A stretch of DNA of 64,000 bases, taken from the IMG/VR virus record IMGVR_UViG_3300045988_178038, positions 1 to 64,000 of that record. The stretch is one strand, 5' to 3'. The stretch is from a virus. Below, in pieces: positions 28,961 through 38,833 of the stretch. The translations under genes and the position numbers were made by a program. The notes under the pieces were generated by a model. That model was not told the origin of the DNA, ran no database searches, and saw only the letters and a list, made by a program, of their open reading frames with translations. Each line of letters opens with the position of its first letter. Within the stretch, counting starts at the first letter, position 1.

Positions 28961-28969
28961 GTACTAGAA

Positions 28970-29143: not shown

Positions 29144-29205
29144 TGTCAAAAATTCAAATTATTTCAAAATTATCTTCTGTCAAAGATTCAACCCATTTCA
29201 AATTT
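29144..29205 (+). repeat. 28-bp imperfect direct repeat pair
   Basis: TGTCAAAAATTCAAATTATTTCAAAATT (29144-29171) and TGTCAAAGATTCAACCCATTTCAAATTT (29178-29205). Confidence 0.7.
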
Positions 29206-29315
29206 TTGTTATTGCTTATATGATATCGCGCAGCAAAATTTGACATCGCGTTACATGACATCATAGAATAAGGAATAAGCCCCAGCTAATAAGCCAGGGC
29301 TTAGGGGTAGAAAGC

Positions 29316-29684: not shown

Positions 29685-29830
29685 ACTAGTATCCTTCTTT
29701 CAATTTTCTAATAGATGGGTTTATATCCCCGATTTTAGAAATAGAAGAAGATAATCGAACGTAAGTCGCAGCTTATGCGCGGTTCCACTATGTGGAGGTT
29801 TCGTTTCTTCTTCCCTCAGTTTCTATATAT

Positions 29831-29859
29831 ATTATACTATATTTTCGTTGATTTTTCAA
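29831..29859 (-). promoter_or_regulatory. promoter (minus strand) TTGAAA-17-TATAAT
   Basis: Read on the minus strand: TTGAAA (29859-29854), 17 bp, TATAAT (29836-29831); leader of about 140 nt to ATG 29684. Confidence 0.5.
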
Positions 29860-29869
29860 AATTGCGCCG

Positions 29870-29884
29870 GTCACGTTACGTGAC
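29870..29884. promoter_or_regulatory. 15-bp perfect palindrome GTCACGTTACGTGAC
   Basis: Sits 10 bp upstream of the -35 of the 29831-29859 promoter; a related GTCACGT half-site lies at 29899-29905. Confidence 0.5.
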
Positions 29885-30012
29885 ATTTTGTGCGTGCTGT
29901 CACGTAAAATGACGTCTTTCTTTGTCAAATTTTCCAGCTTAACAGTTGCAAAAAATGCGTTTTATTTTTTAAGAGGAAATTTCCATTGATACCTCTATAA
30001 ATTTCAATATCC

Positions 30013-30105
30013 CAGCTTATCGTCTGAAATATTGAAGACCCAGCTTATATGAAATTTGACACAAACGCAGCTTATTAGCAAGGCGGCCGCGCAGACGCAG
30101 CTTAT
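30013..30105 (+). repeat. four phased copies of CAGCTTAT (27-30 bp spacing)
   Basis: Copies at 30013, 30041, 30068, 30098; a fifth at 29769; lies in a 0.5 kb ORF-free region. Confidence 0.7.
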
Positions 30106-30272
30106 TTCAAAATTTGACTTTTCATTCAAATTCGATAATAGTTATTATATGAAGCGATAGAGGCCGCGCGATGTCATATAATATAGAAAAACTCATGTAA
30201 TATCGCGCGGCAAATATAATGTAATGTGGAATTGGGTATCATGTAAAGTTGAAAATTTGACAAAAATTTGAA

Positions 30273-30291
30273 TTAGACGTGAAACGTCTAA
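30273..30291. promoter_or_regulatory. dyad element TTAGACG-N5-CGTCTAA
   Basis: N5 = TGAAA; leftmost copy, next to the terminator at 30292. Confidence 0.6.
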
Positions 30292-30317
30292 TAAAAAAAG
30301 AGTGATTAAATCACTCT
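30292..30317 (-). terminator. intrinsic terminator (minus strand)
   Basis: AGAGTGAT/ATCACTCT stem (30299-30306/30310-30317), U-run encoded by the A-run 30292-30298. Confidence 0.65.
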
Positions 30318-30323
30318 TTATCA

Positions 30324-30422
30324 TTATCCGAATCGGATAAAATTAGAATCTCCGCTTGCTTTCCAAGGGTGGTTGATACCCATGCGTTTGCACCAAAAAT
30401 AACACTTAATTCTTCTAATCAT
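30324..30422 (-). CDS. hypothetical micro-ORF (32 aa) in the smallest cassette (could instead be an sRNA)
   Basis: GGAG 7 nt before ATG 30422; MIRRIKCYFWCKRMGINHPW...; own promoter and terminator. Confidence 0.3.
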   Translation of the reverse strand: MIRRIKCYFWCKRMGINHPWKASGDSNFIRFG

Positions 30423-30482
30423 TTTTAATCTCCGTTTCATCAGTATATTCTTCTGGCGTGCGGTCTTTCATTTGGTATTTGT

Positions 30483-30511
30483 ATTATATCATAGTTTTTT
30501 CTTTTTGTCAA
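30483..30511 (-). promoter_or_regulatory. promoter (minus strand) TTGACA-17-TATAAT
   Basis: TGTCAA at 30506-30511 and ATTATA at 30483-30488 on the plus strand; TGn extended -10. Confidence 0.65.
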
Positions 30512-30520
30512 CTCTTTTTA

Positions 30521-30539
30521 TTAGACGAAGAACGTCTAA
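30521..30539. promoter_or_regulatory. dyad element TTAGACG-N5-CGTCTAA
   Basis: N5 = AAGAA; 9 bp upstream of the -35. Confidence 0.6.
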
Positions 30540-30540
30540 A

Positions 30541-30573
30541 AAGAAAATAAAAAGAGGACGCTTACACGTCCTC
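30541..30573 (-). terminator. intrinsic terminator (minus strand)
   Basis: GAGGACG/CGTCCTC stem (30554-30560/30567-30573), U-run from the A-rich 30541-30553. Confidence 0.7.
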
Positions 30574-30592
30574 TACTAAAAGGTATTTGTTT

Positions 30593-30808
30593 TCAAAGAG
30601 GTGATTTTTCATCTTCTTCCCCGAATATGTCTCTTAGGATAGGAAGATAGTAGTATCTGATAAAAGATTGAACGGAAAAGAGATGATCAGAAAGCTCTTG
30701 AATTTCTGTTGCCTCATCTTCTTCTAGGTTTTCTTTTGCTCGGATGGAATCTGCTGAAAGCTCTTCGATTTCATCTACCATATTTCTAAGTTTTTGAGTA
30801 AGATTCAT
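30593..30808 (-). CDS. hypothetical acidic protein (71 aa)
   Basis: RBS GAAAGGAAG; own promoter and terminator. Confidence 0.6.
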   Translation of the reverse strand: MNLTQKLRNMVDEIEELSADSIRAKENLEEDEATEIQELSDHLFSVQSFIRYYYLPILRDIFGEEDEKSPL

Positions 30809-30857
30809 TTCTATTACTTCCTTTCACTTTGGTTGTTTCTTTCAACTTTGTAACTAG

Positions 30858-30886
30858 ATTATACCATAAAAATTTTGATTTGTCAA
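30858..30886 (-). promoter_or_regulatory. promoter (minus strand) TTGACA-17-TGgTATAAT
   Basis: TGTCAA 30881-30886, ATTATA 30858-30863; conserved leader CTAGTTACAAAGTTGA. Confidence 0.7.
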
Positions 30887-30895
30887 GAACTTTTT

Positions 30896-30914
30896 TTAGA
30901 CGGTTTACGTCTAA
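30896..30914. promoter_or_regulatory. dyad element TTAGACG-N5-CGTCTAA
   Basis: N5 = GTTTA; 9 bp upstream of the -35. Confidence 0.6.
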
Positions 30915-30922
30915 AAATGCGT

Positions 30923-30949
30923 AAAAGAAAAGGACACATAATGTGTCCT
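30923..30949 (-). terminator. intrinsic terminator (minus strand)
   Basis: AGGACACAT/ATGTGTCCT stem (30931-30939/30941-30949), U-run from 30923-30930. Confidence 0.7.
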
Positions 30950-30964
30950 TTTTCTCTTTACATA

Positions 30965-31711
30965 TCACCGAACGACGAATTTGTTCTTTGTCTTGTAATA
31001 TGTCGCGCGCGCTCCTTCGACAATAATTTTTTCACCCGGCAAGTCAATGGTGAGCTCGCGTGTCACTTTACGTTCAATAGAACGCTTTGCCTGATAGTCT
31101 CCGTTCAAATCGGCGCCACGGTCGAGACAAGCAAATAAAATTTCGGCTTCGATTTCGCTATCAGAAAGCGCGGTATGATCTTCAGTAAATGACGCATCAG
31201 AACGGATGTAACGCGTCAATGCTTCGGCAGTTGTGGAATAATGCCCGCTTTCAGTGAAAGCATTATTTTCTTCACACCATGCGCGGAATGTATTATCAAT
31301 CATGAAATGATGGACAAAACCGCGGATATCAGAAATAGGAACGGTTTCAAAAGGATTTATGACTTTGAACCAATCGCAGTTGAAATTGAAAACTTTTTCA
31401 TCGAAAGCGGAATTGTAAGCAAACGCGCGTTCAACTTCATAGTTGCGGAAATCACGGAGCATTTGCTGTGTCACATAACCGAACTTTTCCATCCGGATGG
31501 TTCGCGCTCTCAAAGCACCGACATAAATAGAACGCTTGTTTGCATAGTATGCAGTATTGAAAAGCGGGAGATTGTGCCAGATTTGCTCAATGACAAATTC
31601 ACGCTTTACAAGACAGGCACGAGATTCCGTATCAAGAATTAGATAGCCGACATTATAACAATACGGCTTTTCAAGGCTTGTCGTTTCCGTGTCGAATACA
31701 CAAATTTTCAT
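30965..31711 (-). CDS. DEDDh-type 3-prime to 5-prime exonuclease (DnaQ / RNase T-like)
   Basis: Exo I VFDTETTS, Exo II AYNSAFDEKVF, Exo III HTALSDSEIE. Confidence 0.75.
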   Translation of the reverse strand: MKICVFDTETTSLEKPYCYNVGYLILDTESRACLVKREFVIEQIWHNLPLFNTAYYANKRSIYVGALRARTIRMEKFGYVTQQMLRDFRNYEVERAFAYNSAFDEKVFNFNCDWFKVINPFETVPISDIRGFVHHFMIDNTFRAWCEENNAFTESGHYSTTAEALTRYIRSDASFTEDHTALSDSEIEAEILFACLDRGADLNGDYQAKRSIERKVTRELTIDLPGEKIIVEGARATYYKTKNKFVVR

Positions 31712-31771
31712 TTTTTCAAAGTCCTTTCATATTTCATTGATGGGTCTTTCGTCCTCTATCAACGTAACCAT

Positions 31772-31800
31772 ATTATAGCATAGAAAAGGGATTTTGTCAA
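31772..31800 (-). promoter_or_regulatory. promoter (minus strand) TTGACA-17-TGcTATAAT
   Basis: TGTCAA 31795-31800, ATTATA 31772-31777. Confidence 0.65.
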
Positions 31801-31842
31801 GAACTTTTTTTGTCGTGTAAGACGACGCGTGGTAGTCGGTTT

Positions 31843-31861
31843 TTAGACGATGGACGTCTAA
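31843..31861. promoter_or_regulatory. dyad element TTAGACG-N5-CGTCTAA
   Basis: N5 = ATGGA; 42 bp upstream of the -35; an extra small hairpin GTCGT-GTAAG-ACGAC lies at 31812-31826. Confidence 0.6.
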
Positions 31862-31897
31862 AAAAAAGAAATAAGAAAGAGGACGCATTACACGTCC
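31862..31897 (-). terminator. intrinsic terminator (minus strand) with the stop codon in the loop
   Basis: GGACG/CGTCC stem (31881-31885/31893-31897), loop holds TAA of ORF 31888; A-rich 31862-31880 gives the U-tail. Confidence 0.6.
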
Positions 31898-32109
31898 CTT
31901 TCGAGTTCAATGTAATGTTCAAGATTAGGAATTTCAATATCAAGAATTTCGTCGCAATCCGTTACTTTATTGAGTTTTTGATAAACTTCATTATACATAT
32001 TTTTCCACAATTTTTCATCGTAACAGTCATGAAGGGTGGTAGGCGCGAATTCGTCATCAATTTCAATTTCTTTTTCTACGCGTCCGATATAACTCACTTT
32101 TACTTTCAT
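31888..32109 (-). CDS. hypothetical protein (73 aa), paralog of 35407..35628
   Basis: ATG 32109; MKVKVSYIGRVEKEIEIDDE versus MKVKIIYTATVEKEIEVNDV. Confidence 0.6.
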   Translation of the reverse strand: MKVKVSYIGRVEKEIEIDDEFAPTTLHDCYDEKLWKNMYNEVYQKLNKVTDCDEILDIEIPNLEHYIELERDV

Positions 32110-32156
32110 TTCAAATCCTTCTTTCATTTGGTTATTTTCTTCAACCTTGTAACTAG

Positions 32157-32185
32157 ATTATAACATAAGAATTTCAATTTGTCAA
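32157..32185 (-). promoter_or_regulatory. promoter (minus strand) TTGACA-17-TGtTATAAT
   Basis: TGTCAA 32180-32185, ATTATA 32157-32162; conserved leader. Confidence 0.7.
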
Positions 32186-32194
32186 GAACTTTTT

Positions 32195-32213
32195 TTAGAC
32201 GTTCTTCGTCTAA
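32195..32213. promoter_or_regulatory. dyad element TTAGACG-N5-CGTCTAA
   Basis: N5 = TTCTT; 9 bp upstream of the -35. Confidence 0.6.
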
Positions 32214-32221
32214 AGACGAAA

Positions 32222-32250
32222 GGAAAAGAGGGTGACGCTTTACGCGCCAC
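32222..32250 (-). terminator. intrinsic terminator (minus strand) with the stop codon in the loop
   Basis: GTGACGC/GCGCCAC stem (6 of 7 bp), loop TTTAC holds TAA of ORF 32240. Confidence 0.55.
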
Positions 32251-32623
32251 TTTCCTCCTTTTCCTTTTCGCGTTCCTCGCGCTTGCGCTTTGCCTCGGCG
32301 CGGTTCTTTTCGTCCCATGCGATTTTTTCGGCTTTCTTCTTTGCGGTTTCGGCTTTTTTTGCGCGTTTCGCTTCGGTTTCCTGCGCGTAGTTCTGCGCTT
32401 CCTCGTAACCGTCATAAGGAATATAACATTTATTCTCTTTGTCACGCTCGCCCTTCGGGATACTAAAAGCGATATTCAAATATCCCTCATCTTCACCACG
32501 CACCCACGGAATAGAGATTGTTCCGCTTTTGACCTGTAACACATCTTCGCCCTTACTTTCGAACAGTTCGCGCACGGCAGACATAAATTCCTCGCGGATT
32601 TCAGTTTCAATTTTACTTGCCAT
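32240..32623 (-). CDS. hypothetical protein with a lysine/glutamate-rich C-terminal tail (127 aa)
   Basis: RBS AAAGGAAG; own promoter and terminator. Confidence 0.6.
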   Translation of the reverse strand: MASKIETEIREEFMSAVRELFESKGEDVLQVKSGTISIPWVRGEDEGYLNIAFSIPKGERDKENKCYIPYDGYEEAQNYAQETEAKRAKKAETAKKKAEKIAWDEKNRAEAKRKREEREKEKEESGA

Positions 32624-32658
32624 AGTTTTTGACTTCCTTTCTTTTATTTGGTAACTAG

Positions 32659-32687
32659 ATTATACCATAATTTTTTCAAAAAGTCAA
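32659..32687 (-). promoter_or_regulatory. promoter (minus strand) TTGACT-17-TGgTATAAT
   Basis: AGTCAA 32682-32687, ATTATA 32659-32664. Confidence 0.65.
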
Positions 32688-32738
32688 GTATTTGAAGAAA
32701 AAAATTTTTGGCGCGTTAGATTGCATTCTCGAAGGACT

Positions 32739-32757
32739 TTAGACGTATAACGTCTAA
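32739..32757. promoter_or_regulatory. dyad element TTAGACG-N5-CGTCTAA
   Basis: N5 = TATAA; 51 bp upstream of the -35. Confidence 0.6.
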
Positions 32758-32787
32758 AAATTTCTAAAGGGAAAGGCGAACCTAACC

Positions 32788-32985
32788 CTATTTTTCCTTT
32801 TCATCAATAAAAATTTCTTCATCGAGAAATTCCAAGCGATAAATTTTTTCCTGGACAAGATAAGTTTTACAATGCGGACATTTGATAAAACACGAGTAAT
32901 AATAATTATCATCTACTACTTCTTCAGTGGACTTGTAACAATTCTGAAATTCATCAAAGCGATTCTGACAATTTGGACAATACAT
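32788..32985 (-). CDS. hypothetical Zn-ribbon protein (65 aa)
   Basis: ATG 32985 behind GAAGGGAG; CPNC ... CPHC. Confidence 0.55.
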   Translation of the reverse strand: MYCPNCQNRFDEFQNCYKSTEEVVDDNYYYSCFIKCPHCKTYLVQEKIYRLEFLDEEIFIDEKEK

Positions 32986-33014
32986 TTTAAAAGCTCCCTT
33001 CACTTGATATCTTT

Positions 33015-33043
33015 ATTATAGCAGAAACTTATGAAAAAGTCAA
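33015..33043 (-). promoter_or_regulatory. promoter (minus strand) TTGACT-17-TGcTATAAT
   Basis: AGTCAA 33038-33043, ATTATA 33015-33020. Confidence 0.65.
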
Positions 33044-33053
33044 GAAAAATTTT

Positions 33054-33072
33054 TTAGACGTTCTTCGTCTAA
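33054..33072. promoter_or_regulatory. dyad element TTAGACG-N5-CGTCTAA
   Basis: N5 = TTCTT (identical to the copy at 32195); 10 bp upstream of the -35. Confidence 0.6.
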
Positions 33073-33082
33073 ATTAGTTCAT

Positions 33083-33111
33083 AAAAAAGGACGTCACTTT
33101 ATGTGACGTCC
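33083..33111 (-). terminator. intrinsic terminator (minus strand)
   Basis: GGACGTCAC/GTGACGTCC stem (33089-33097/33103-33111), U-run from 33083-33088. Confidence 0.75.
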
Positions 33112-33119
33112 CGTTACGT

Positions 33120-33512
33120 TTACTCTGCGTCGCTCGGCTCGGTGTCGCTCGGTTCTGCGTTCGCGAGGGAATAGCCCTTTGCTTTTCCCTTGCCCTTAAT
33201 CTTGACTTCAACAGAAGTCACTTCACCGGACTTCTCAAGAATCCGGAGCAGAGAAGAACACTTCTGAATGTTCTTCAGTTCCGGCTTTGCGTCAAAGAGG
33301 TCAGACGCGGTGATGTGATGGTCAGCAGCGGCGAGGACTTCGCGCACGATGGGCAGAAGTGCTTCGTTTTCCTTCTGTGCCTTTGTCGGCTTAGAGGAGC
33401 GTTCGGCGTTCTTCTTGTCCATTGCGGACAGGAGCGCGACAGCCTTTTCAGAGATTTCAGCGGAAACGTTTTCCATGGACAGGATAGCATTGTAAAATTC
33501 ACGAGTAGTCAT
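33120..33512 (-). CDS. hypothetical protein (130 aa), paralog of 29316..29684
   Basis: RBS GAAAGGAG; GC-richer than neighbours; see the paralog note. Confidence 0.6.
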   Translation of the reverse strand: MTTREFYNAILSMENVSAEISEKAVALLSAMDKKNAERSSKPTKAQKENEALLPIVREVLAAADHHITASDLFDAKPELKNIQKCSSLLRILEKSGEVTSVEVKIKGKGKAKGYSLANAEPSDTEPSDAE

Positions 33513-33592
33513 AATAGGCTCCTTTCATTTTAGCGACGGTCGCCACCCTATTTTTTTATATTCAAGAGGTTTCCTCTCTTGATTACGCCTTT

Positions 33593-33621
33593 ATTATACC
33601 ATAGATTTTTGAATTTGTCAA
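33593..33621 (-). promoter_or_regulatory. promoter (minus strand) TTGACA-17-TGgTATAAT (proximal of a tandem pair)
   Basis: TGTCAA 33616-33621, ATTATA 33593-33598. Confidence 0.65.
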
Positions 33622-33725
33622 GAGGGTTTTGGTCTTTTTTTTCATCGAAGCCGGCATTTGACTAAACTTGGGACTATATATACCATTAGGCTCGCCCACA
33701 GCGTCTCGCCCTCTTGACATTATGA

Positions 33726-33754
33726 ATTATATCATAGTCCGCGCGAAAAGTCAA
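33726..33754 (-). promoter_or_regulatory. promoter (minus strand) TTGACT-17-TGaTATAAT (distal of a tandem pair)
   Basis: AGTCAA 33749-33754, ATTATA 33726-33731; about 100 nt upstream of the proximal promoter. Confidence 0.55.
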
Positions 33755-33805
33755 GAAGAAATTTTAGAAATTTTGTCATATAACGTGACTTCGCGCGAGA
33801 AAGAT

Positions 33806-33824
33806 TTAGACGAGGAACGTCTAA
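33806..33824. promoter_or_regulatory. dyad element TTAGACG-N5-CGTCTAA
   Basis: N5 = AGGAA; 51 bp upstream of the -35 at 33749-33754. Confidence 0.6.
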
Positions 33825-33830
33825 TTCAAG

Positions 33831-33861
33831 AGAGAAAGAAAAGAGGCGCTTTATGCGCCTC
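33831..33861 (-). terminator. intrinsic terminator (minus strand)
   Basis: GAGGCGC/GCGCCTC stem (33843-33849/33855-33861), U-run from 33831-33842. Confidence 0.7.
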
Positions 33862-33884
33862 AAAAAGATATATTACATTTTATT

Positions 33885-34157
33885 TTACTTTTCTTTGTTG
33901 AGAATGTCAAAACATTTGTTTTCATCGACTCCAATGAAAGTTACTTTACAAGAAGTAGAATAGAATTTCCCACTTCTAAAGCTTGCTTCCCATTTTGCTA
34001 CATATTTGAGACCATTGTTATCGTTTCGCCATTCTCCCATTACCGTGCTTGTGATATATTTTCTTGCTACTTTGTCTTTGACGTGGTTTTTCGCCATTAC
34101 CATAGCTTGCTGAAGGTTGGTAAAATAATATCCTCTTACGCGATAAAACGTAGTCAT
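33885..34157 (-). CDS. hypothetical protein (90 aa)
   Basis: ATG 34157 behind AAAGGAGAA; track ORF shortened. Confidence 0.55.
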   Translation of the reverse strand: MTTFYRVRGYYFTNLQQAMVMAKNHVKDKVARKYITSTVMGEWRNDNNGLKYVAKWEASFRSGKFYSTSCKVTFIGVDENKCFDILNKEK

Positions 34158-34232
34158 TAGAAATTCTCCTTTTTGTGATAAGTCACAACCTATTTTTATT
34201 TCGTTGAGTTCCTGTCTCAACTTTGTAACTAG

Positions 34233-34261
34233 ATTATAACATAAAAGTTTTGATTTGTCAA
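34233..34261 (-). promoter_or_regulatory. promoter (minus strand) TTGACA-17-TGtTATAAT
   Basis: TGTCAA 34256-34261, ATTATA 34233-34238; conserved leader. Confidence 0.7.
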
Positions 34262-34280
34262 TAATTTTTCGAAAAATTTT

Positions 34281-34299
34281 TTAGACGGTCTACGTCTAA
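34281..34299. promoter_or_regulatory. dyad element TTAGACG-N5-CGTCTAA
   Basis: N5 = GTCTA; 19 bp upstream of the -35. Confidence 0.6.
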
Positions 34300-34300
34300 T

Positions 34301-34331
34301 AGGAAAGGGAATACGCTTATCGCGTATTCCC
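34301..34331 (-). terminator. terminator-like hairpin (minus strand) with the stop codon in the loop
   Basis: 10-bp stem GGGAATACGC/GCGTATTCCC (34307-34316/34322-34331); loop TTATC holds TAA of ORF 34317; weak U-tail. Confidence 0.5.
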
Positions 34332-34670
34332 GCAAATAATTCTTTTCATTATCTGTTCAATAATACTGTGGCTGTTCGGGATACAAAAAGGCAGTTTTAT
34401 ATTCAGTCTTTGTGCCTCATTGAGAAGGTCTGCGCGAATGTCATCATATCCCGCAATGCTACTCAAAAGACACGTTCTTGCAATTTCTGCGTCGTGGTCT
34501 GCTTTTTTCCTGTCTGGTGTATTTTCTGGATAGAGAATGGCAGAGAAGATTGTTGCATAGGTGTCAAAAACTCGCATTTCAAGTGTAAAAGTGCTTTCAT
34601 GTAAACGTTCAATTCGATTGTTGATCACGGGATTGGTAGTCGGCTGAATTTTCTTTTTCTTTTTGAACAT
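34317..34670 (-). CDS. hypothetical protein (117 aa)
   Basis: RBS GAAAGGAAG; own promoter and terminator. Confidence 0.6.
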   Translation of the reverse strand: MFKKKKKIQPTTNPVINNRIERLHESTFTLEMRVFDTYATIFSAILYPENTPDRKKADHDAEIARTCLLSSIAGYDDIRADLLNEAQRLNIKLPFCIPNSHSIIEQIMKRIICGNTR

Positions 34671-34704
34671 TTTAGAAGCTTCCTTTCTTTTGTTTGGTAA
34701 TTGT

Positions 34705-34733
34705 ATTATATCATAAGAATTTCAATTCGTCAA
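34705..34733 (-). promoter_or_regulatory. promoter (minus strand) TTGACG-17-TGaTATAAT
   Basis: CGTCAA 34728-34733, ATTATA 34705-34710. Confidence 0.6.
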
Positions 34734-34742
34734 TAGTTTTCT

Positions 34743-34761
34743 TTAGACGGTTCACGTCTAA
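34743..34761. promoter_or_regulatory. dyad element TTAGACG-N5-CGTCTAA
   Basis: N5 = GTTCA; 9 bp upstream of the -35. Confidence 0.6.
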
Positions 34762-34764
34762 GAC

Positions 34765-34800
34765 AAAAAAACAGAAAAAGGTGACGCTTTATGCGTCACC
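34765..34800 (-). terminator. intrinsic terminator (minus strand) with the stop codon in the loop
   Basis: GGTGACGC/GCGTCACC stem (34780-34787/34793-34800), loop TTTAT holds TAA of ORF 34789, U-run from 34765-34779. Confidence 0.75.
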
Positions 34801-35247
34801 AATCGAATGAAGAAAATCAAAAATCTCTGTCGCGTCATATGCCATCATTCCTGCGTGCGTCCATTCTTCACGATTTGGCTTTTCATCATCAAAAAGAAAA
34901 CCGCCGCGCAATATGCCAACTTCGCTTTTTGGTGTGCCGTAATGAACAATACAAATTTCATCGAATCGAACGCTTTTCAAATGGCGCGAAAGCCATTCCA
35001 TTTTTGCGCGGCGAACTTCTTCAAGAAAATTTTCGTCACGGTCTTTACTTCCCCATGATACAATGCGGATTTTCCATCCCTTGCGCTGAACCGCGTTCAA
35101 ACGTCGCGCGAGTCTTGAAAGATTGAGAAGTGCGCGTGCGTCTCTGTATGGGCTTGCATCATGCGCGCGAATTTTCGGAAGCCAATTTTTAATGCCGTAA
35201 AAGTCAACGATTGTTCCATCCATATCTAAACTAATAATTTTTTCCAT
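34789..35247 (-). CDS. HAD-superfamily 5-prime(3-prime)-deoxyribonucleotidase-like phosphatase
   Basis: N-terminal ISLDMDGTIVDF (DxDG nucleophile motif), FLFDD near the C-terminus; size typical of NT5C-like phage enzymes. Confidence 0.55.
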   Translation of the reverse strand: MEKIISLDMDGTIVDFYGIKNWLPKIRAHDASPYRDARALLNLSRLARRLNAVQRKGWKIRIVSWGSKDRDENFLEEVRRAKMEWLSRHLKSVRFDEICIVHYGTPKSEVGILRGGFLFDDEKPNREEWTHAGMMAYDATEIFDFLHSIGDA

Positions 35248-35276
35248 TTTAAAAGCTCCTTTCTTTTTGTATCTAA

Positions 35277-35305
35277 ATTATATCATAGTTTTTCTAATTT
35301 GTCAA
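35277..35305 (-). promoter_or_regulatory. promoter (minus strand) TTGACA-17-TGaTATAAT
   Basis: TGTCAA 35300-35305, ATTATA 35277-35282. Confidence 0.65.
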
Positions 35306-35355
35306 GAAGAATTTTAGAAAATTTTGACATATAAGATGAAATCTGTGTGAAATAT

Positions 35356-35374
35356 TTAGACGATGGACGTCTAA
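35356..35374. promoter_or_regulatory. dyad element TTAGACG-N5-CGTCTAA
   Basis: N5 = ATGGA (identical to the copy at 31843); 50 bp upstream of the -35. Confidence 0.6.
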
Positions 35375-35398
35375 CAAAAAAAGGGGAAATTCCCCCCC
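35375..35398 (-). terminator. intrinsic terminator (minus strand)
   Basis: GGGGA/TCCCC stem (35383-35387/35391-35395), U-run from 35375-35382. Confidence 0.6.
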
Positions 35399-35406
35399 CT
35401 CTTGTA

Positions 35407-35628
35407 TTACCATATTGCAATACAAATATATGAACCTTTTTCCTTGTCAAAGGCAAAAATACGGTCCATGTCTTTAAAACCTTCTTGTTTTTCTGCAATG
35501 TCGGCCATTTTGTCACAAAAAAGGTCGGAAATTTCTTCTGGGCAATCTTCCCGTTTTACAATTTCATAAACATCATTGACTTCAATTTCCTTTTCAACTG
35601 TAGCGGTATAAATAATTTTTACTTTCAA
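35407..35628 (-). CDS. hypothetical protein (73 aa), paralog of 31888..32109
   Basis: RBS GAAAGGAAA; shared N-terminus MKVK..Y...VEKEIE. Confidence 0.6.
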   Translation of the reverse strand: MKVKIIYTATVEKEIEVNDVYEIVKREDCPEEISDLFCDKMADIAEKQEGFKDMDRIFAFDKEKGSYICIAIW

Positions 35629-35676
35629 TTTATATTTTCCTTTCTTTTCGTTGAGTTATTTCAACTTTGTAATTAG

Positions 35677-35705
35677 ATTATATCATAAGAATTTCAATTT
35701 GTCAA
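35677..35705 (-). promoter_or_regulatory. promoter (minus strand) TTGACA-17-TGaTATAAT
   Basis: TGTCAA 35700-35705, ATTATA 35677-35682; conserved leader. Confidence 0.7.
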
Positions 35706-35714
35706 GAACTTTTT

Positions 35715-35733
35715 TTAGACGAACCACGTCTAA
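35715..35733. promoter_or_regulatory. dyad element TTAGACG-N5-CGTCTAA
   Basis: N5 = AACCA; 9 bp upstream of the -35. Confidence 0.6.
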
Positions 35734-35742
35734 TTTTCCACT

Positions 35743-35899
35743 AGAAGAAACGCGCGGTGATGGTTGCCCGCGCATTTCAATGTAAACAAAACAAAAACAC
35801 AAAAGAAAGGAGGCACTATTTTCTCCAACCATCAGAAGGAAACAGTATCAACAAAGAAGATTTTTCCTAACCCACCCACAACCATCTTCTTTTGATTAC
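35743..35899 (-). ncRNA. candidate sRNA of about 155 nt (promoter-to-terminator unit without a convincing ORF)
   Basis: Starts after the TATAAT at 35906-35911; hairpins AAGAAGAT/ATCTTCTT and GGAG/CTCC; ends at GCGCGG/CCGCGC stem (35752-35757/35768-35773) plus U-run; only RBS-less ORFs of 17-50 aa. Confidence 0.35.
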
Positions 35900-35905
35900 G
35901 TAATT

Positions 35906-35934
35906 ATTATAGCACGTTTTATGCGGTTTGTCAA
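35906..35934 (-). promoter_or_regulatory. promoter (minus strand) TTGACA-17-TGcTATAAT
   Basis: TGTCAA 35929-35934, ATTATA 35906-35911. Confidence 0.65.
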
Positions 35935-36003
35935 GAGGAATTTCAAAATTTCTGGAAATTATTTTTGTAAAATTTTCTGAAATTCTTTCCTCTAACTATC
36001 TAT

Positions 36004-36031
36004 ATTATACTATATTTTCTGAAAAAGTCAA
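36004..36031 (-). promoter_or_regulatory. promoter (minus strand) TTGACT-16-TATAAT (tandem, upstream of 35906-35934)
   Basis: AGTCAA 36026-36031, ATTATA 36004-36009. Confidence 0.55.
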
Positions 36032-36041
36032 GAAAAAACTT

Positions 36042-36060
36042 TTAGACGAAAAACGTCTAA
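36042..36060. promoter_or_regulatory. dyad element TTAGACG-N5-CGTCTAA
   Basis: N5 = AAAAA; 10 bp upstream of the -35. Confidence 0.6.
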
Positions 36061-36070
36061 ATCGATCTAG

Positions 36071-36100
36071 GAAAAAAGAGTTGACGCATTACGCGTCAAC
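36071..36100 (-). terminator. intrinsic terminator (minus strand) with the stop codon in the loop
   Basis: GTTGACGC/GCGTCAAC stem (36080-36087/36093-36100), loop ATTAC holds TAA of ORF 36089, U-run from 36072-36077. Confidence 0.75.
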
Positions 36101-36484
36101 TCCGTATTCTTTCATTTCTTTTTTCAATTCTTCAATTTTATCTGCGGGGAGATACCAACGATAATGTTCTTCATCATAAAGATAAAGCCCCGTCGTTTTA
36201 CGATTATGGCCACCATCGCTACTCCATGGGCTAATAATTTCACAAGAATTACACAATTCATCAATAGAGGGGATTGCGCTTTCATCTTCTATATAAATTC
36301 CCCAAATTTCACAGGAAGAAGAAACTATATCGTCAAAAGATAAAATTTTTTTATCACGGCCGAAAAAAATTACGTTGTTAAAATGTTTACTAATCTTTTC
36401 CAAGCGTTCGTGTTGCCAGCACTCATTTTCATCGTCAAAAACCTGCCCGCAGAGGTCGCAAACATATTTTGTGATAGTAGTCAT
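36089..36484 (-). CDS. hypothetical protein with an N-terminal C2H2-like zinc finger (131 aa)
   Basis: YVCDLCGQVFDDENECWQHE; RBS GAAAGGGGAA. Confidence 0.6.
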   Translation of the reverse strand: MTTITKYVCDLCGQVFDDENECWQHERLEKISKHFNNVIFFGRDKKILSFDDIVSSSCEIWGIYIEDESAIPSIDELCNSCEIISPWSSDGGHNRKTTGLYLYDEEHYRWYLPADKIEELKKEMKEYGVDA

Positions 36485-36513
36485 TTTTATTCCCCTTTCA
36501 TTTTGGTATTTGT

Positions 36514-36542
36514 ATTATATCATAGATTTTTTCTTTTGTCAA
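36514..36542 (-). promoter_or_regulatory. promoter (minus strand) TTGACA-17-TGaTATAAT
   Basis: TGTCAA 36537-36542, ATTATA 36514-36519. Confidence 0.65.
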
Positions 36543-36552
36543 GAATTTTTAT

Positions 36553-36571
36553 TTAGACGATATACGTCTAA
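36553..36571. promoter_or_regulatory. dyad element TTAGACG-N5-CGTCTAA
   Basis: N5 = ATATA; 10 bp upstream of the -35. Confidence 0.6.
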
Positions 36572-36580
36572 AATTTTCTG

Positions 36581-36606
36581 GAAGAGAAATGACGCGTTAT
36601 GCATCA
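36581..36606 (-). terminator. intrinsic terminator (minus strand) with the stop codon in the loop
   Basis: 6-bp stem 36590-36595/36601-36606 (one G-U on the transcript), loop holds TAA of ORF 36597, U-rich tail. Confidence 0.55.
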
Positions 36607-36827
36607 TCTCTCAAGATTTCTTCGTTCAAAATATAACAATTACCATCGTCTTGAATTTCGATATTTCCCAAAATATTTTCCAATTCATCAACGGCTCTTT
36701 GTAATTCGTTGTTCTGTGTAAATTGCAACGCATTTCTCAACCAGCACCGCGCGTTATTGATATCAGCAAATTCTTTGTCTGAAAAAGAAATCTGCTGTCT
36801 TTTGATAGTAATATTTTCAATCTTCAT
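36597..36827 (-). CDS. hypothetical protein (76 aa)
   Basis: RBS GAAGGAG; last gene of a three-ORF mini-operon. Confidence 0.6.
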   Translation of the reverse strand: MKIENITIKRQQISFSDKEFADINNARCWLRNALQFTQNNELQRAVDELENILGNIEIQDDGNCYILNEEILRDDA

Positions 36828-36891
36828 TTCAAAAACACTCCTTCAAAAATTTTGAAAATATTCCAATTTGCGAGAAAAGGCCGCGCGAAAA

Positions 36892-36978
36892 TCACGTTGA
36901 AATAAGAAAAATAAGCCAAAGAATCACAAGGATTCCAATTACACCAAAGAAATTTCCAAAAAACTTTTTAGTCTTCAT
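36892..36978 (-). CDS. hypothetical single-pass membrane peptide (28 aa)
   Basis: MKTKKFFGNFFGVIGILVILWLIFLIST; the ATG overlaps the end of the upstream micro-ORF. Confidence 0.3.
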   Translation of the reverse strand: MKTKKFFGNFFGVIGILVILWLIFLIST

Positions 36979-37105
36979 AGACTTGCGCATAACAAATCCA
37001 CTCTTCAATACAAAGGTCCGCGCGGTGCATTGCGTCCACAAAAGTTAGCCCAAAAATCATTGAGCATTCAAAGGTTTCTAAGTTTTGAATAAAGTAAGTA
37101 TACAT
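36968..37105 (-). CDS. hypothetical micro-ORF (45 aa)
   Basis: RBS AAAGGAGAA 5 nt before ATG 37105; first ORF after the promoter at 37129-37157. Confidence 0.35.
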   Translation of the reverse strand: MYTYFIQNLETFECSMIFGLTFVDAMHRADLCIEEWICYAQVYED

Positions 37106-37128
37106 TGTTTTCTCCTTTCTTTGATTAT

Positions 37129-37157
37129 ATTATATCAGAATTTTTTGAAAAAGTCAA
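37129..37157 (-). promoter_or_regulatory. promoter (minus strand) TTGACT-17-TGaTATAAT
   Basis: AGTCAA 37152-37157, ATTATA 37129-37134. Confidence 0.6.
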
Positions 37158-37168
37158 GAAATTTTTTT

Positions 37169-37187
37169 TTAGACGAATTACGTCTAA
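37169..37187. promoter_or_regulatory. dyad element TTAGACG-N5-CGTCTAA
   Basis: N5 = AATTA; 11 bp upstream of the -35. Confidence 0.6.
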
Positions 37188-37216
37188 GAAATTAGAGCTG
37201 GCTCAAGTCCAGCTCT
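37186..37216 (-). terminator. terminator-like hairpin (minus strand)
   Basis: AGAGCTGG/CCAGCTCT stem (37194-37201/37209-37216) overlapping the stop of the 57-aa ORF; short U-rich tail. Confidence 0.5.
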
Positions 37217-37376
37217 CTCCTTCTCGATTTGGCAAAATTGTCAGCTTATAAACGCAGCTCCCAGCTTGTAAGTAGTTTTTGATGAGGGAAGGCAACTCCT
37301 CTAGAGTAGTAATGTTGTCTTCACTGACGCCATGTTGGCCCATGATGCCATTGTCATGTTCTACTAAAACTGTCAT
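37203..37376 (-). CDS. hypothetical protein (57 aa); below the ORF-track cut-off
   Basis: RBS GGAAGGAG 8 nt before ATG 37376; MTVLVEHDNGIMGQHGVSEDNITTLEEL...; own promoter and hairpin. Confidence 0.5.
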   Translation of the reverse strand: MTVLVEHDNGIMGQHGVSEDNITTLEELPSLIKNYLQAGSCVYKLTILPNREGESWT

Positions 37377-37453
37377 GATATATTACTCCTTCCATGTTAT
37401 ACGACATTCCAATAAACTTCGGATAATATTCATTTTCCGCCGTCCTTGCCCAT

Positions 37454-37481
37454 ATTATATCACATAATAGCAAAAAATCAA
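37454..37481 (-). promoter_or_regulatory. promoter (minus strand) TTGATT-16-TGaTATAAT
   Basis: AATCAA 37476-37481, ATTATA 37454-37459. Confidence 0.5.
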
Positions 37482-37513
37482 GTCCTCTAACATGACAGAA
37501 TGGCGTCTAATAG

Positions 37514-37532
37514 TTAGACGAACTCCGTCTAA
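37514..37532. promoter_or_regulatory. dyad element TTAGACG-N5-CGTCTAA
   Basis: N5 = AACTC; part of a cluster with half-sites CGTCTAA 37504-37510 and TTAGACG 37598-37604. Confidence 0.6.
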
Positions 37533-37559
37533 AAATGAATAAAAGTCACATAAGATGAC

Positions 37560-37578
37560 TTAGACGAACCACGTCTAA
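37560..37578. promoter_or_regulatory. dyad element TTAGACG-N5-CGTCTAA
   Basis: N5 = AACCA (identical to the copy at 35715). Confidence 0.6.
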
Positions 37579-37640
37579 AAGTCATACTACATTGCTTTTA
37601 GACGTGACCGGGTGATGTCATGTAAAGTGACATCAATTGA

Positions 37641-37670
37641 TAAAAAGAAAAGACGCTTTACGCGTCTTTT
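37641..37670 (-). terminator. intrinsic terminator (minus strand) with the stop codon in the loop
   Basis: AAAAGACGC/GCGTCTTTT stem (37648-37656/37662-37670), loop TTTAC holds TAA of ORF 37658, U-run from 37641-37650. Confidence 0.7.
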
Positions 37671-37912
37671 CCCACATAAACGATGATTTCATGGTCTCTT
37701 GTCAACTCAAGTCCCTTGACATGCCATTTTTCAATCTCATCGGGAAAGAGGACTTCTCCCGTTACAGAGTTGACATAGCGCCCGCACCCGTCATTTTCAT
37801 AATTAGAATTGTCATAGACCCATTCAGCCCCCGTTTCATCGTCATAGATGAATTCGGGGTAAGCATACGCGACATAGTCGCAGAAGTCAGCTAAGGTAAT
37901 AGTTTTTTTCAT
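37658..37912 (-). CDS. hypothetical protein (84 aa)
   Basis: ATG 37912 behind GAAAGGAA; last gene of a three-gene operon. Confidence 0.55.
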   Translation of the reverse strand: MKKTITLADFCDYVAYAYPEFIYDDETGAEWVYDNSNYENDGCGRYVNSVTGEVLFPDEIEKWHVKGLELTRDHEIIVYVGKDA

Positions 37913-37966
37913 TTTATATTCCTTTCTGCCCGTCATGCCGATAGCTCAGCGTCATGTCATTTTAGG

Positions 37967-38203
37967 TTACGCACTCCATCTTAGGTTGCGCCACCCGCCA
38001 ATGTCAGTCCCATTTTCATCTATGGTTACGATGTCGCCTGATGCGACTTTTTCTTGTACGACAAAGCCGAGACGCGCGCCGTTCTCCATAGCTTTGTCAA
38101 GATAAGTGACTACTGTATCCGCGTCGCCTAACGTTGCGAAATACTGGTCTGTCACTTCTTCTGTCATGTCATAGCGCACAATCAGTCTAAAATTCATTTC
38201 CAT
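37967..38203 (-). CDS. hypothetical protein (78 aa)
   Basis: RBS GGAAGGAG; follows 38240..38740 without a terminator. Confidence 0.6.
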   Translation of the reverse strand: MEMNFRLIVRYDMTEEVTDQYFATLGDADTVVTYLDKAMENGARLGFVVQEKVASGDIVTIDENGTDIGGWRNLRWSA

Positions 38204-38239
38204 GTTACATAGCTCCTTCCATTTTACGGGACTGGGCGC

Positions 38240-38740
38240 TTAGAGCGCCCATCCATTGTCCAGCCATTCGGAAAACGGCATTGCCTGCGCGCAGGCAACA
38301 GCGCGTTCAAGTATTTCAAGTAACTTGAAATACTTCTTGCCGTGCGGAGCGTTCAGTTTACCATTCCAAAATGTTTGGATGGTTATTTTACGCTCCCCAT
38401 TGCTACTAGTCTTTTCGCGGAGAAGTCCAGCCTCTGACAGGACTTCAATGAAGGTGTCGCGTGTCAGGACATAGGCCCTCTGCTCTGTTAACTCTTTGTC
38501 GGGATTGATGACCGGACAATAGATCACATAACGTGACCCCTTGACCAGCTTGTCACCTAACCGGCCAAGCTCACCAGCCCCCGATTTGATTTCATAACAC
38601 TGCGCGGCGCGGCGCATATCCGTGCGACCGGGCGCCGCCACTTTAGATTTCATATGCAGCGTCTCTTTACAAAGACGTTCAAACGCCTTCCCACAGCGCC
38701 CGCAGTCGCTTTCAGTGTAACCGTACTTTTCAATATTCAT
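38240..38740 (-). CDS. hypothetical protein, possible PD-(D/E)xK nuclease fold (166 aa)
   Basis: N-terminal CGRCGKAF...C cluster; TDMRRAAQCYEIKSG fits D-x(n)-E-x-K; GC-richer than neighbours. Confidence 0.5.
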   Translation of the reverse strand: MNIEKYGYTESDCGRCGKAFERLCKETLHMKSKVAAPGRTDMRRAAQCYEIKSGAGELGRLGDKLVKGSRYVIYCPVINPDKELTEQRAYVLTRDTFIEVLSEAGLLREKTSSNGERKITIQTFWNGKLNAPHGKKYFKLLEILERAVACAQAMPFSEWLDNGWAL

Positions 38741-38804
38741 CTTTTATTCTCACTTTCTCGTCGTCTGTCCGGCGTGTCGTTGTTTTGTTTTTGTTTACGC
38801 TCTT

Positions 38805-38833
38805 ATTATAGCAATAACGTCTAAGAATGTCAA
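38805..38833 (-). promoter_or_regulatory. promoter (minus strand) TTGACA-17-TGcTATAAT with a dyad half-site in the spacer
   Basis: TGTCAA 38828-38833, ATTATA 38805-38810; CGTCTAA at 38818-38824 lies between -35 and -10. Confidence 0.65.

Follow-up and report, generated by a model that had tools for sequence, protein, structure and literature searches.

In T4-type phages, small variable early genes are separated by PeSLs, composite elements of a terminator and an early promoter at which genes are gained, lost or replaced and which hold the end points of these events (PMC2839356, PMC4122927). A similar arrangement is described here for a stretch of 64,000 nucleotides of phage DNA (positions 1 to 64,000 of IMG/VR record IMGVR_UViG_3300045988_178038, the window in what follows), in which an early array of small genes carries 17 exact copies of a 19-bp interrupted palindrome, TTAGACG-N5-CGTCTAA (the dyad). 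The dyad is coupled to promoters, lies in normally untranscribed DNA, is read as sequence, has two-fold symmetry and is accompanied by functional-looking half-sites, and among related phages its type tracks one gene, the first of the array (Table 1). In the explanation preferred here, which is held with moderate confidence, the dyad would be the duplex-DNA target of a phage-encoded dimeric protein, likely the product of that first gene, through which the early cassettes would be controlled. Binding of the dyad by the first-gene product, repression as the direction of control, and cutting are treated as candidate roles.

The combination of an invariant interrupted palindrome before every early promoter, lineage-specific alternatives to it and a co-varying first gene with a nuclease fold is new among the systems compared, none of which has such a trio. 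The cassettes share the terminator and early promoter architecture of PeSLs as well as their end points: a stem-loop and a sigma-70 promoter stand between variable open reading frames (ORFs) and end points fall inside the unit, the dyad itself lying outside the PeSL definition. Unlike the present cassettes, PeSLs have no extra invariant dyad, and neither lineage-specific alternative motifs nor an associated protein have been described for them; here no part of the cassette is better conserved than the 19-bp element, whose type changes in step with a gene. On the IncP plasmid RK2, global operators occur in two forms, OB (TTTAGCGGCTAAA, bound by KorB) and OA (TGTTTAGCTAAACA, bound by KorA) (PMC11790492, PMC2665229). 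The resemblance lies in many near-identical short palindromes at set distances from promoters on a mobile element, where in RK2 an element-encoded dimer represses coordinately. KorB, however, is a ParB-family CTPase and KorA a helix-turn-helix (HTH) protein, whereas here neither domain was detected, and a nuclease-like fold is predicted for the candidate partner; no ParB-like family was detected in Pfam and PHROG scans of about 65 window ORFs. The present sites also stand upstream of a tract resembling an UP element, instead of adjoining or overlapping the -35, and belong to a phage early array, not to a plasmid.

Autoregulation by an endonuclease has its precedent in I-TevI of T4, which, probably like I-TevII and I-TevIII, is an autorepressor that binds a partial target overlapping its own promoter without cutting it (PMC2988022). 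That partial site parallels the lone half-site in the spacer of the outermost array promoter, but I-TevI, a homing endonuclease of the GIY-YIG type, has a single homing site and a single operator, whereas there are 17-24 full sites here and no evidence of homing. The host-takeover module of SPO1, on which Stewart et al. reportedly wrote in 1998, is said to lie in the terminal redundancy. The pre-early (first-step-transfer) region of T5 encodes host-DNA degradation functions and a 5'-deoxyribonucleotidase under strong host-polymerase promoters (bioRxiv 10.1101/866236). As in both phages, the array looks like a terminal, first-expressed block of small genes, it keeps nuclease-like, DEDD exonuclease-like and NT5C-like genes, and the ends of contigs suggest that it borders a genome end; in contrast, no repeated promoter-linked dyad has been described in T5 or SPO1, T5 repeats cluster in the injection-stop region and there is no sequence relationship. 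The array may thus recall the first-entering pre-early region of T5 only by analogy.

Alternative, non-cross-reacting pairs of site and protein that are swapped by recombination are the basis of lambdoid heteroimmunity, where HTH repressors act at 3+3 degenerate operators in lysogeny switches. The phages compared here likewise carry alternative site/protein pairs, but the phage in the window appears lytic, has far more sites, with almost no variation among them, and has a nuclease-like protein as the candidate. Type IIP restriction enzymes recognise interrupted palindromes such as GACN5GTC or GCCN5GGC. The dyad resembles these in its symmetry, rigid spacing, unspecified centre and all-or-none conservation, and in its association with a small PD-(D/E)XK protein; it differs in being far longer (14-16 specified bp) and in occupying regulatory positions in the phage's own genome. 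No earlier description of this element was found in the searchable literature: searches with the motif strings returned only primers and reporters, and searches for palindromes at phage early promoters returned nothing relevant. A megablast search of the array against INPHARED phages gave no match. The closest named phage, phAss-1, has a portal protein only about 30% identical to that of the window, and the phAss-1 paper contains nothing on promoters or repeats.

Position and sequence of the dyad

A scan of the whole window with the pattern TTAGACGNNNNNCGTCTAA returned 17 exact matches, all within 30273-37578, while 100 dinucleotide-preserving shuffles gave none. This confirms the number, the coordinates and the confinement to the early array reported in a previous reading of this DNA made from its letters alone (the sequence-only reading). 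All 17 belong to the dyad type termed A below, the only one of types A, B and C present in the window. The 7-bp half-site occurs 38 times against 6.6 expected, and 34 of these occurrences are accounted for by the dyads. The other four begin at 37504, 37598, 38818 and 55691; the last had been assigned to the tape-measure gene and is indeed present, but it lies in the ORF at 54593-55963 and not in the tape-measure gene itself (57323-63835).

The minus strand carries every gene between about 30.2 and 38.8 kb and also the array promoters, a small correction to the sequence-only reading. Along that strand a cassette runs from the stop codon of one gene through a GC-rich hairpin with a T-run, the dyad and an A-rich tract (typically AAAAAGTTC) to a promoter of the form TTGACA-17-TGnTATAAT. 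Eleven array promoters match the sigma-70-type consensus at 12 of 12 positions and carry the extended -10 in addition. The T-run on the 5' side of the dyad and the A-run on its 3' side, previously taken to mean that the dyad lacks a terminator U-tail, are real: the first belongs, as its U-tract, to the intrinsic terminator that ends the preceding gene, and the second resembles an UP element. The dyad therefore follows the point of termination and precedes the next transcription start, and would normally be untranscribed. Tested as an intrinsic terminator in its own right it failed, with an A-run after it and a T-run before it on either strand, and a separate, genuine terminator hairpin with its T-run stands 4-19 nt upstream. 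The distances from dyad to -35 agree with those given before, at 9, 9, 9, 9, 9, 10, 10, 10 and 11 bp in nine strong cassettes and 19, 32, 42, 50, 51 and 51 bp in the others. The cluster formed by the two outermost dyads and their flanking half-sites stands upstream of a weaker promoter (37454-37481).

Related loci were gathered by an exact-pattern scan of IMG/VR, which returned at least 117 stretches on contigs of about 60-140 kb; among the matches listed, 60 stretches carry 3-24 dyads each, 570 in total. The scan of related phages that had been proposed as a check on the motif thus finds dyad arrays in at least 60 loci, with up to 24 copies. Some of these loci are about 87% identical to the array of the window, and others (L002, L040, L079, L029 and L054; L numbers denote the loci compared) are essentially without nucleotide similarity to it. 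The statistics below were obtained with our own scripts from stretches of up to 21 kb per contig, on loci ascertained in part through the motif itself and on cassettes that are not phylogenetically independent.

A near-consensus promoter lies within 90 nt on exactly one side of 374 of 524 dyads in these loci, and on both sides of 0 of 524. In the set of 297 cassettes left after de-duplication, the commonest distance to the -35 is 8-9 bp (125 cassettes), with minor peaks at 12, 18-19, 23, 31-33, 41-42 and 50-51 bp. Among gaps of at least 15 bp there is a 10.5-11 bp periodicity (Rayleigh R 0.44, n=126), the nominal p-value of which overstates its significance because the cassettes are not independent, and the longer gaps are filled by phased A5-6 tracts. 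The centre of the dyad accordingly stands near -54 at the commonest spacing and otherwise whole helical turns farther upstream. Of the 297 cassettes, 194 have a terminator-like hairpin and T-run in the 70 nt upstream, at a distance from the dyad that varies between 4 and 19 nt, as opposed to 0 of 297 in a control segment. Since the gap to the -35 is quantised and that to the terminator is not, the dyad is positioned relative to the promoter. Two consensus promoters without a dyad of their own, at 33593-33621 and 35906-35934, stand in tandem downstream of dyad-bearing promoters. The latter (region 35740-35934) heads a unit of about 150 nt that has no ORF of 50 aa or more and ends at a hairpin; this unit may specify a small RNA or a micro-ORF.

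The arms are conserved almost without exception, with 528 exact, 17 one-mismatch and 2 two-mismatch sites among unique contexts in the dyad-bearing loci. None of the 19 variant sites carries a compensatory change, and in one lineage (L111) four sites share an identical, unpaired change in a single arm, T17>C. The only change that affects both arms is TTAGACC-N5-GGTCTAA, present lineage-wide in five copies in L282, and it is accounted for equally well by a dimeric protein. The length of the centre is as rigid as the arms, being N5 in 618 of 622 sites, N4 in three and N7 in one. Its sequence is variable, as the sequence-only reading had claimed, but not freely so: family-wide, position 8 is T (0.71) or A (0.27) and position 12 is A (0.56) or T (0.36), G+C reaching no more than 8% at either, and positions 9-11 are AT-rich. 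On the sites compared, the full motif is TTAGACGW-N3-WCGTCTAA. Selection for hairpin stability would favour G and C where a stem could be lengthened, yet it is there that they are avoided; such avoidance is what would be expected of indirect readout by a dimer.

Half-sites point in the same direction. In the related loci 177 lone half-sites were counted where about 86 were predicted from composition, roughly a two-fold excess, and 24 unique ones sit within the -35/-10 spacer of a sigma-70-like promoter. The half-site at 38818-38824, which had been noticed inside the spacer of the outermost promoter, proves to belong to an arrangement that is kept in divergent lineages, where the promoter of the first array gene has, as in the window, the form TTGAC(A/T)-N0-3-TTAGACG-...-TATAAT. 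It recurs in lineages whose protein is 28-50% identical (L103, L054, L070, L096, L129, L003, L074, L059, L042 and L004), with the half-site reversed in some. A half-site has no capacity to form a hairpin, and its retention at one promoter position is strong evidence that a protein reads the 7-bp arm on duplex DNA. Tests for the properties of an operator found two-fold symmetry, a fixed N5 spacing and a defined position relative to the core promoter, with a modal gap of 9 bp to the -35. The view that a dimeric protein reads the dyad as DNA, against a role as RNA structure or terminator, is thus supported, as the sequence-only reading had argued, by its untranscribed position, the lack of compensation, the rigid N5, the half-sites and the ladder of about 10.5 bp.

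Dyad types and the first gene of the array

A sample independent of the motif was obtained by anchoring 54 loci on the conserved gene for a 331-aa protein beside the array (40788-41783 in the window), each with at least 5 kb of upstream array. Thirty of these carry type A dyads (TTAGACG), 14 type B (CTTTA-N6-TAAAG, usually followed by GCCCGGGC), 6 type C (GTTAG-N6-CTAAC) and 4 none of these. Types B and C are placed as type A is, directly after the terminator T-run and upstream of A-tracts and promoter. The second conserved motif, GCCCGGGC(G), stands 3-15 nt after type B and C dyads in L132-L135, L282, L296 and L305 and is absent from type A cassettes. L282 combines type C dyads with its five copies of TTAGACC-N5-GGTCTAA. 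At the distal end of type B arrays, L132 (about 270-480) and L134 (about 40-245) carry three LexA-box-like sites, GAACAAACGTTCG and AACATATGTTC (CGAAC-N4-GTTCG), which hint at SOS-linked control in those phages.

Loci of type A and of other types are interleaved when the 331-aa protein is placed on a neighbour-joining tree, giving at least six independent switches, and the type B loci L262 and L263 fall inside a tight type A clade (L261-L272). Between L262 or L263 (type B) and L261 or L267 (type A) the NT5C and 32240-family proteins are 88-97% identical, so the switches are not replacements of the whole module. How local they are can be seen in the orthologous NT5C cassettes, which read T-run, TTTAGACGAAGTTCGTCTAAA, 11 nt and TTGACA in L261, and T-run, CTTTATCTTGTTAAAG, aattGCCCGGGCc, 49 nt and TTGACA in L262. 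From the -35 onwards the promoter core, untranslated region and gene are homologous (the protein is about 90% identical), and the swap point falls directly before the -35. In L263, six type B dyads are accompanied by a single intact dyad of type A. Such exchange in orthologous cassettes indicates that the dyad can be replaced as a module and has to be matched to another component of the genome.

That component was sought by clustering all minus-strand array ORFs into families and comparing these with dyad type. The first array gene, which was not among the candidates of the sequence-only reading, encodes a protein of the family termed REa. A hidden Markov model built from the REa alignment detected homologues in 29 of the 30 type A loci and in none of the 24 non-A loci, and REa together with REb, a subfamily of 195 aa that hhalign relates to it (91% probability, E 1e-6), is the only array family that is general in type A and absent from the other types. 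The NT5C-like nucleotidase, winged-helix, 32240 and DEDD exonuclease-like families occur with all dyad types, and others are confined to small subsets. At the position of the first gene, non-A arrays carry proteins of the F132 or F262 families; L282, with its two dyad types, has two F132 first-gene paralogues. Iterative searches of a small database link F132 to the REa superfamily through the shared motifs D...[S/Q]xK and YVM.R..F...RE.EKNGG..KIR, a link that stays tentative because direct hhalign comparison of the L132 protein with the family of the first array gene was negative.

The first-gene product may be an active nuclease. E21, D41, E50 and K52 are invariant across 33 homologues (35-96% identity), as are R108, K110 and the motifs IQTFWN and PHG. 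An AF2 model (pLDDT 92.3) has an N-terminal alpha-beta-beta-beta-beta core, and the four acidic and lysine residues sit on its H15-27 and strands 42-53. The best BFVD match is a gut-phage protein annotated as 'restriction endonuclease' (E 7e-10, TM 0.72/0.63), and the sub-threshold Pfam and PADLOC matches of REa and REb are all to PD-(D/E)XK models. Pfam, PHROG, PDB-sequence and PADLOC scans of the array proteins were otherwise mostly empty.

In the explanation preferred here, the dyad would be a module attached just upstream of the UP-like A-tract and -35 of nearly every early promoter of host sigma-A type. The first-gene product would be made from the outermost promoter and, on accumulating, would occupy all dyads as a dimer; the early cassettes would then be coordinately controlled and most likely shut off, whether by interference with use of the UP element by the C-terminal domain of the polymerase alpha subunit (alpha-CTD) or by bridging of sites. 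It would also regulate its own synthesis through the half-site in its promoter spacer, as I-TevI does at its operator, and the lineages would carry distinct dyad/first-gene pairs (A, B and C) that behave as specificity groups. Repression is favoured over activation because the promoters already match the consensus and have UP-like tracts, and relatives with other dyads share the promoters.

Several observations weigh against this explanation. A centre near -54, upstream of the UP-like tract, is a geometry more typical of activators, and invariant catalytic residues are needless for a pure repressor and point to cleavage. The first-gene product has no significant PDB match in sequence or fold and no recognisable known DNA-binding domain. 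REa and REb differ at conserved C-terminal residues, yet accompany the same dyad; the F132 and F262 families do not sort cleanly between types B and C, and the weakness of the F132 link counts here too. L275 has type A dyads and no homologue detected within its 6.5 kb, and the TTAGACC-N5-GGTCTAA dyads of L282 are accompanied by F132-type genes only. Moreover, dyad and first gene are physically linked (within 10 kb) in a highly recombinogenic region, and hitch-hiking is possible.

A bolder extension is doubtful: the hypervariable nuclease-fold first-gene proteins of a large clade of gut and rumen siphoviruses might form matched specificity pairs with their early-promoter palindromes, each acting both as a global switch and as a nuclease, and these pairs might diversify and be swapped wholesale as a form of kin discrimination, either by silencing or cutting same-type superinfecting DNA on entry or through break-driven exchange of cassettes. 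If this were true, lytic phages would have, in the matched pairs, a nuclease-fold counterpart of heteroimmunity.

Should the preferred explanation hold, it would define the logic of early-transcription control in a large and abundant phage clade seen only in metagenomes; one window protein is indexed in 646 blocks of a public assembly collection. The dyad itself, with 14-16 specified bp in hundreds of copies, is a marker of early promoters and of phage 'type', and its concerted switching with one gene is a natural experiment that names a candidate trans factor and so makes the system immediately testable with a small protein and a 19-bp oligonucleotide. A partner that truly is a nuclease-fold regulator, a self-directed nuclease or both would represent a new solution to two old problems, the shut-off of host-polymerase-dependent early genes in lytic phages and cassette shuffling in hyperplastic early regions, and orthogonal operator/protein pairs for synthetic biology in Firmicutes would be possible.

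Other explanations of the dyad

The term 'operator' may be too narrow, since the partner resembles an active nuclease and could cleave or nick the dyad. Taken to its conclusion, this would make the dyads primarily cleavage or nicking sites of the first-gene product and only secondarily, if at all, operators. Breaks at cassette boundaries would process the first-entering region and thereby end early expression, create recombinogenic or replication-priming ends, or drive exchange of cassettes between co-infecting relatives. The invariance of the catalytic E/D/ExK residues favours such a role, and so does the form of the motif: palindromes that are interrupted, rigidly spaced, unspecified at the centre and conserved in an all-or-none fashion are usual for type II restriction sites, not for operators. 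When the window was compared with its relatives of about 87% identity, 12 of 47 homology breakpoints fell within 10 nt of a dyad against 3.6 expected (the maximum in 2000 randomisations was 11), and most of the remainder fell inside the intergenic unit; the arrays are also mosaic, as the single type A dyad in L263 illustrates. A comparable and likewise unproven idea has been put forward for the action of T5 A1/A2 on first-step-transfer DNA (bioRxiv 10.1101/866236). Against this, cutting its own DNA at 17-24 sites would destroy the early region of the phage. No methyltransferase or other protective modification system was seen among the window proteins scanned, and the dyad is enriched, not avoided, in the phage's own DNA, as a restriction-modification pair would not have it. 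Nor does cleavage account for the fixed, helically phased distance to the -35 or for the half-site in the nuclease gene's own promoter, and the excess of breakpoints at conserved islands is in part an artefact of alignment. Cleavage as the primary role is therefore considered unlikely.

Somewhat less probable again is that the dyad serves as the operator of another phage protein (winged-helix, ribbon-helix-helix (RHH) or AbrB-like) or of a host transcription factor, its link to the first gene being due to hitch-hiking. Winged-helix proteins can plausibly read the palindrome, as the form TTAGACGT-N3-ACGTCTAA occurs as a conserved, promoter-proximal single site in GntR-family operons of Paenarthrobacter/Arthrobacter (L146) and Sphaerochaetaceae (L171, L189 and L256). 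The array encodes a winged-helix family of its own with a strongly conserved recognition helix, AbrB-like proteins are found in the arrays of several dyad-bearing lineages, and about 40% of the phage genome lies outside the window. The array-encoded winged-helix family is phage-specific and has a fold resembling the DNA-binding domains of Fur and PadR, and it is the most widespread family in the arrays (52 loci), with a nearly invariant central KPTKAQKENE and an acidic tail. It accompanies all dyad types, however, and was rejected as the binder because its members in types A, B and C share one recognition helix, S/T-Q-K-x-S-x-L-x-R, which lineages without the dyad keep unchanged.

The other proteins fare no better. 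The sequence-only reading had proposed the RHH protein (26702-26845, an RHH_1 hit) and two winged-helix-like proteins (17567-18045) as regulators, a suggestion that had to be dropped: no link to the dyad was detectable for the RHH protein or for the 17567 and 17821 proteins, which have homologues in at most two related loci and are without family-wide conservation in the available loci. A DUF5659 protein was set aside for its lack of family-wide conservation in the same loci, and the AbrB-like proteins, encoded in several type A arrays, because the window has none. Switches of type between phages whose neighbouring proteins are 88-97% identical and which, on that identity, probably share a host are hard to square with a host factor. 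In a scan of 185,579 genomes for the dyad, the matches listed include phage arrays binned into metagenome-assembled genomes from ruminant and human gut (Clostridia, Eubacteriales, Acutalibacteraceae); among them there was no regulon and there were no single-copy chromosomal sites in candidate Clostridia hosts.

Very improbable is a role as a nucleic-acid structure, be it an RNA hairpin (a second hairpin of the terminator, or an element for RNA processing or stability), a single-stranded DNA hairpin or cruciform of the kind used by HUH enzymes at repetitive extragenic palindromes (REP/RAYT-like), or a hairpin promoter of N4 type. As single-stranded DNA the dyads do fold into hairpins of 7-10 bp (-5.6 to -8.5 kcal/mol), positions 8 and 12 are mutually complementary in 76% of sites, and the L282 variant altered both arms together. 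The identical 19-mer, TTAGACGTCSGACGTCTAA, is moreover a multi-copy REP-like repeat in many Patescibacteria (Giovannonibacteria, Saccharibacteria, Nealsonbacteria and others) and flanks IS200/RAYT-like HUH transposase genes in L168, L239 and L174 (the bacterial records are L139-L258). Yet the dyad stands between the terminator U-tract and the next transcription start, is followed by no T-run on either strand, shows single-arm and never compensatory variation, shuns G and C where the stem would be extended, and has half-sites kept at a specific promoter position. Rfam 15 gave no match with E <= 0.1 on either strand of 28000-39500. The comparison with REP/RAYT elements failed as well, for centres and flanks vary, copies occur only upstream of promoters and no Y1_Tnp or other HUH transposase was present among the window proteins scanned. 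Extrusion of a cruciform requires longer arms than these of 7-8 bp. As regards a promoter of N4 type, no protein resembling an RNA polymerase was detected in the window, whose largest ORF is the tape-measure gene, and every dyad already accompanies a host-type promoter. The palindrome can apparently be read by winged-helix regulators and, as a hairpin, by HUH enzymes, uses unrelated to that of the phage.

Equally hard to credit is that the dyad has no binding partner and is simply part of a terminator/promoter cassette copied and homogenised by recombination. The stem-loop terminator and early promoter between small variable genes, and the mosaic content, do match PeSLs (PMC2839356, PMC4122927), but homogenisation would also conserve neighbouring sequence, whereas 14-16 positions are invariant across phages without nucleotide similarity while flanks, centres and spacers have diverged, and it leaves unexplained both the concerted replacement of array dyads where genes stay about 90% identical and the half-sites of the first promoter.

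Coordinates and surroundings of the array

Table 1. Early array of the window, its dyads and promoters, and array-encoded proteins discussed in the text
Feature	Position	Strand	Remarks
Early cassette array	30193..38833	minus	About 20 transcription units: terminator and T-run, dyad, A-tract, promoter
Dyad 1, TTAGACGTGAAACGTCTAA	30273..30291		9 bp from degenerate TTGTCA -35; distal array end
Dyad 2	30521..30539		Gap 9 bp; promoter 30483-30511 (minus)
Dyad 3	30896..30914		Gap 9 bp; promoter 30858-30886
Dyad 4	31843..31861		Gap 42 bp; promoter 31772-31800, drives exonuclease-like gene 30965-31711
Dyad 5	32195..32213		Gap 9 bp; promoter 32157-32185
Dyad 6	32739..32757		Gap 51 bp; promoter 32659-32687
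Dyad 7	33054..33072		Gap 10 bp; promoter 33015-33043
Dyad 8	33806..33824		Gap 51 bp; promoter 33726-33754, then dyad-less promoter 33593-33621
Dyad 9	34281..34299		Gap 19 bp; promoter 34233-34261
Dyad 10	34743..34761		Gap 9 bp; promoter 34705-34733
Dyad 11	35356..35374		Gap 50 bp; promoter 35277-35305, drives NT5C-like 5'-deoxynucleotidase gene 34789-35247
Dyad 12	35715..35733		Gap 9 bp; promoter 35677-35705
Dyad 13	36042..36060		Gap 10 bp; promoter 36004-36031
Dyad 14	36553..36571		Gap 10 bp; promoter 36514-36542
Dyad 15	37169..37187		Gap 11 bp; promoter 37129-37157
Dyad cluster	37504..37604		Dyad 16 (37514-37532), dyad 17 (37560-37578), half-sites 37504-37510 and 37598-37604
Outermost array promoter	38805..38833	minus	TTGACA-TTC-TTAGACG-TTATTGC-TATAAT; half-site 38818-38824 in spacer; kept in divergent lineages
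First array gene (REa), 166 aa	38240..38740	minus	PD-(D/E)XK / restriction-endonuclease-like; co-varies with TTAGACG dyad
Winged-helix protein	33120..33512	minus	Array-encoded; paralogue 29316-29684

Beyond the distal end of the array, an asymmetric tract of about 800 nt that is almost purely pyrimidine and CT-rich on the minus strand occupies 28230-29000, has no ORF and adjoins a replication-initiator-like gene (27091-27738; phrog_270/678/186); the AT skew of 28-30 kb is 0.23. The tract may be an origin or other structural DNA. Between it and the array, 29000-30130 contains about 8-10 copies of ATAAGCTG(C/G)G, with two more inside the array (37240-37270), and these look like iterons or another protein-binding repeat.

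At the other end, five tandem copies of AAACTGAAATTTA occupy 39050-39115, just upstream of the promoter of a sigma-like gene, and the equivalent repeats contain the starts of contigs L120, L121 and L128. In several lineages, more than ten contigs in all stop 1.6-2.1 kb upstream of the gene for the 331-aa protein, which would reflect either a physical genome end (the edge of a direct terminal repeat) or a recurrent assembly break. If it is a physical end, the nuclease-like gene would be the terminal, first-entering gene. The sigma-like gene (39197-40525) stands beside the array in all lineages and has its own sigma-70-type promoter (39147-39175), without a dyad. The C-terminal third of its 442-aa product matches phrog_5767 'sigma factor' (E 2e-12) and a zinc ribbon lies at the C-terminus, making it a candidate phage sigma factor for the adjacent structural genes.

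Farther away, five tRNA genes lie at 778-2140 (Gly-TCC, Lys-TTT, Ile-GAT, Leu-CAA and Met-CAT), with no suppressor tRNA among them, and the long ORFs of the window read through with the standard code, unlike those of the distant relative phAss-1 (code 15 clade). An HNH endonuclease gene (55960-57036; phrog_59, E 6e-70) lies between the ORF at 54593-55963 and the gene for the 2170-aa tape-measure protein. Just upstream of the portal gene, two adjoining conserved ORFs of 272 and 182 aa (42561-44021) are separated in L133-L135 by insertions of 1.2-1.5 kb, and may represent a split gene, possibly for a terminase, that has received a mobile insertion in some relatives.

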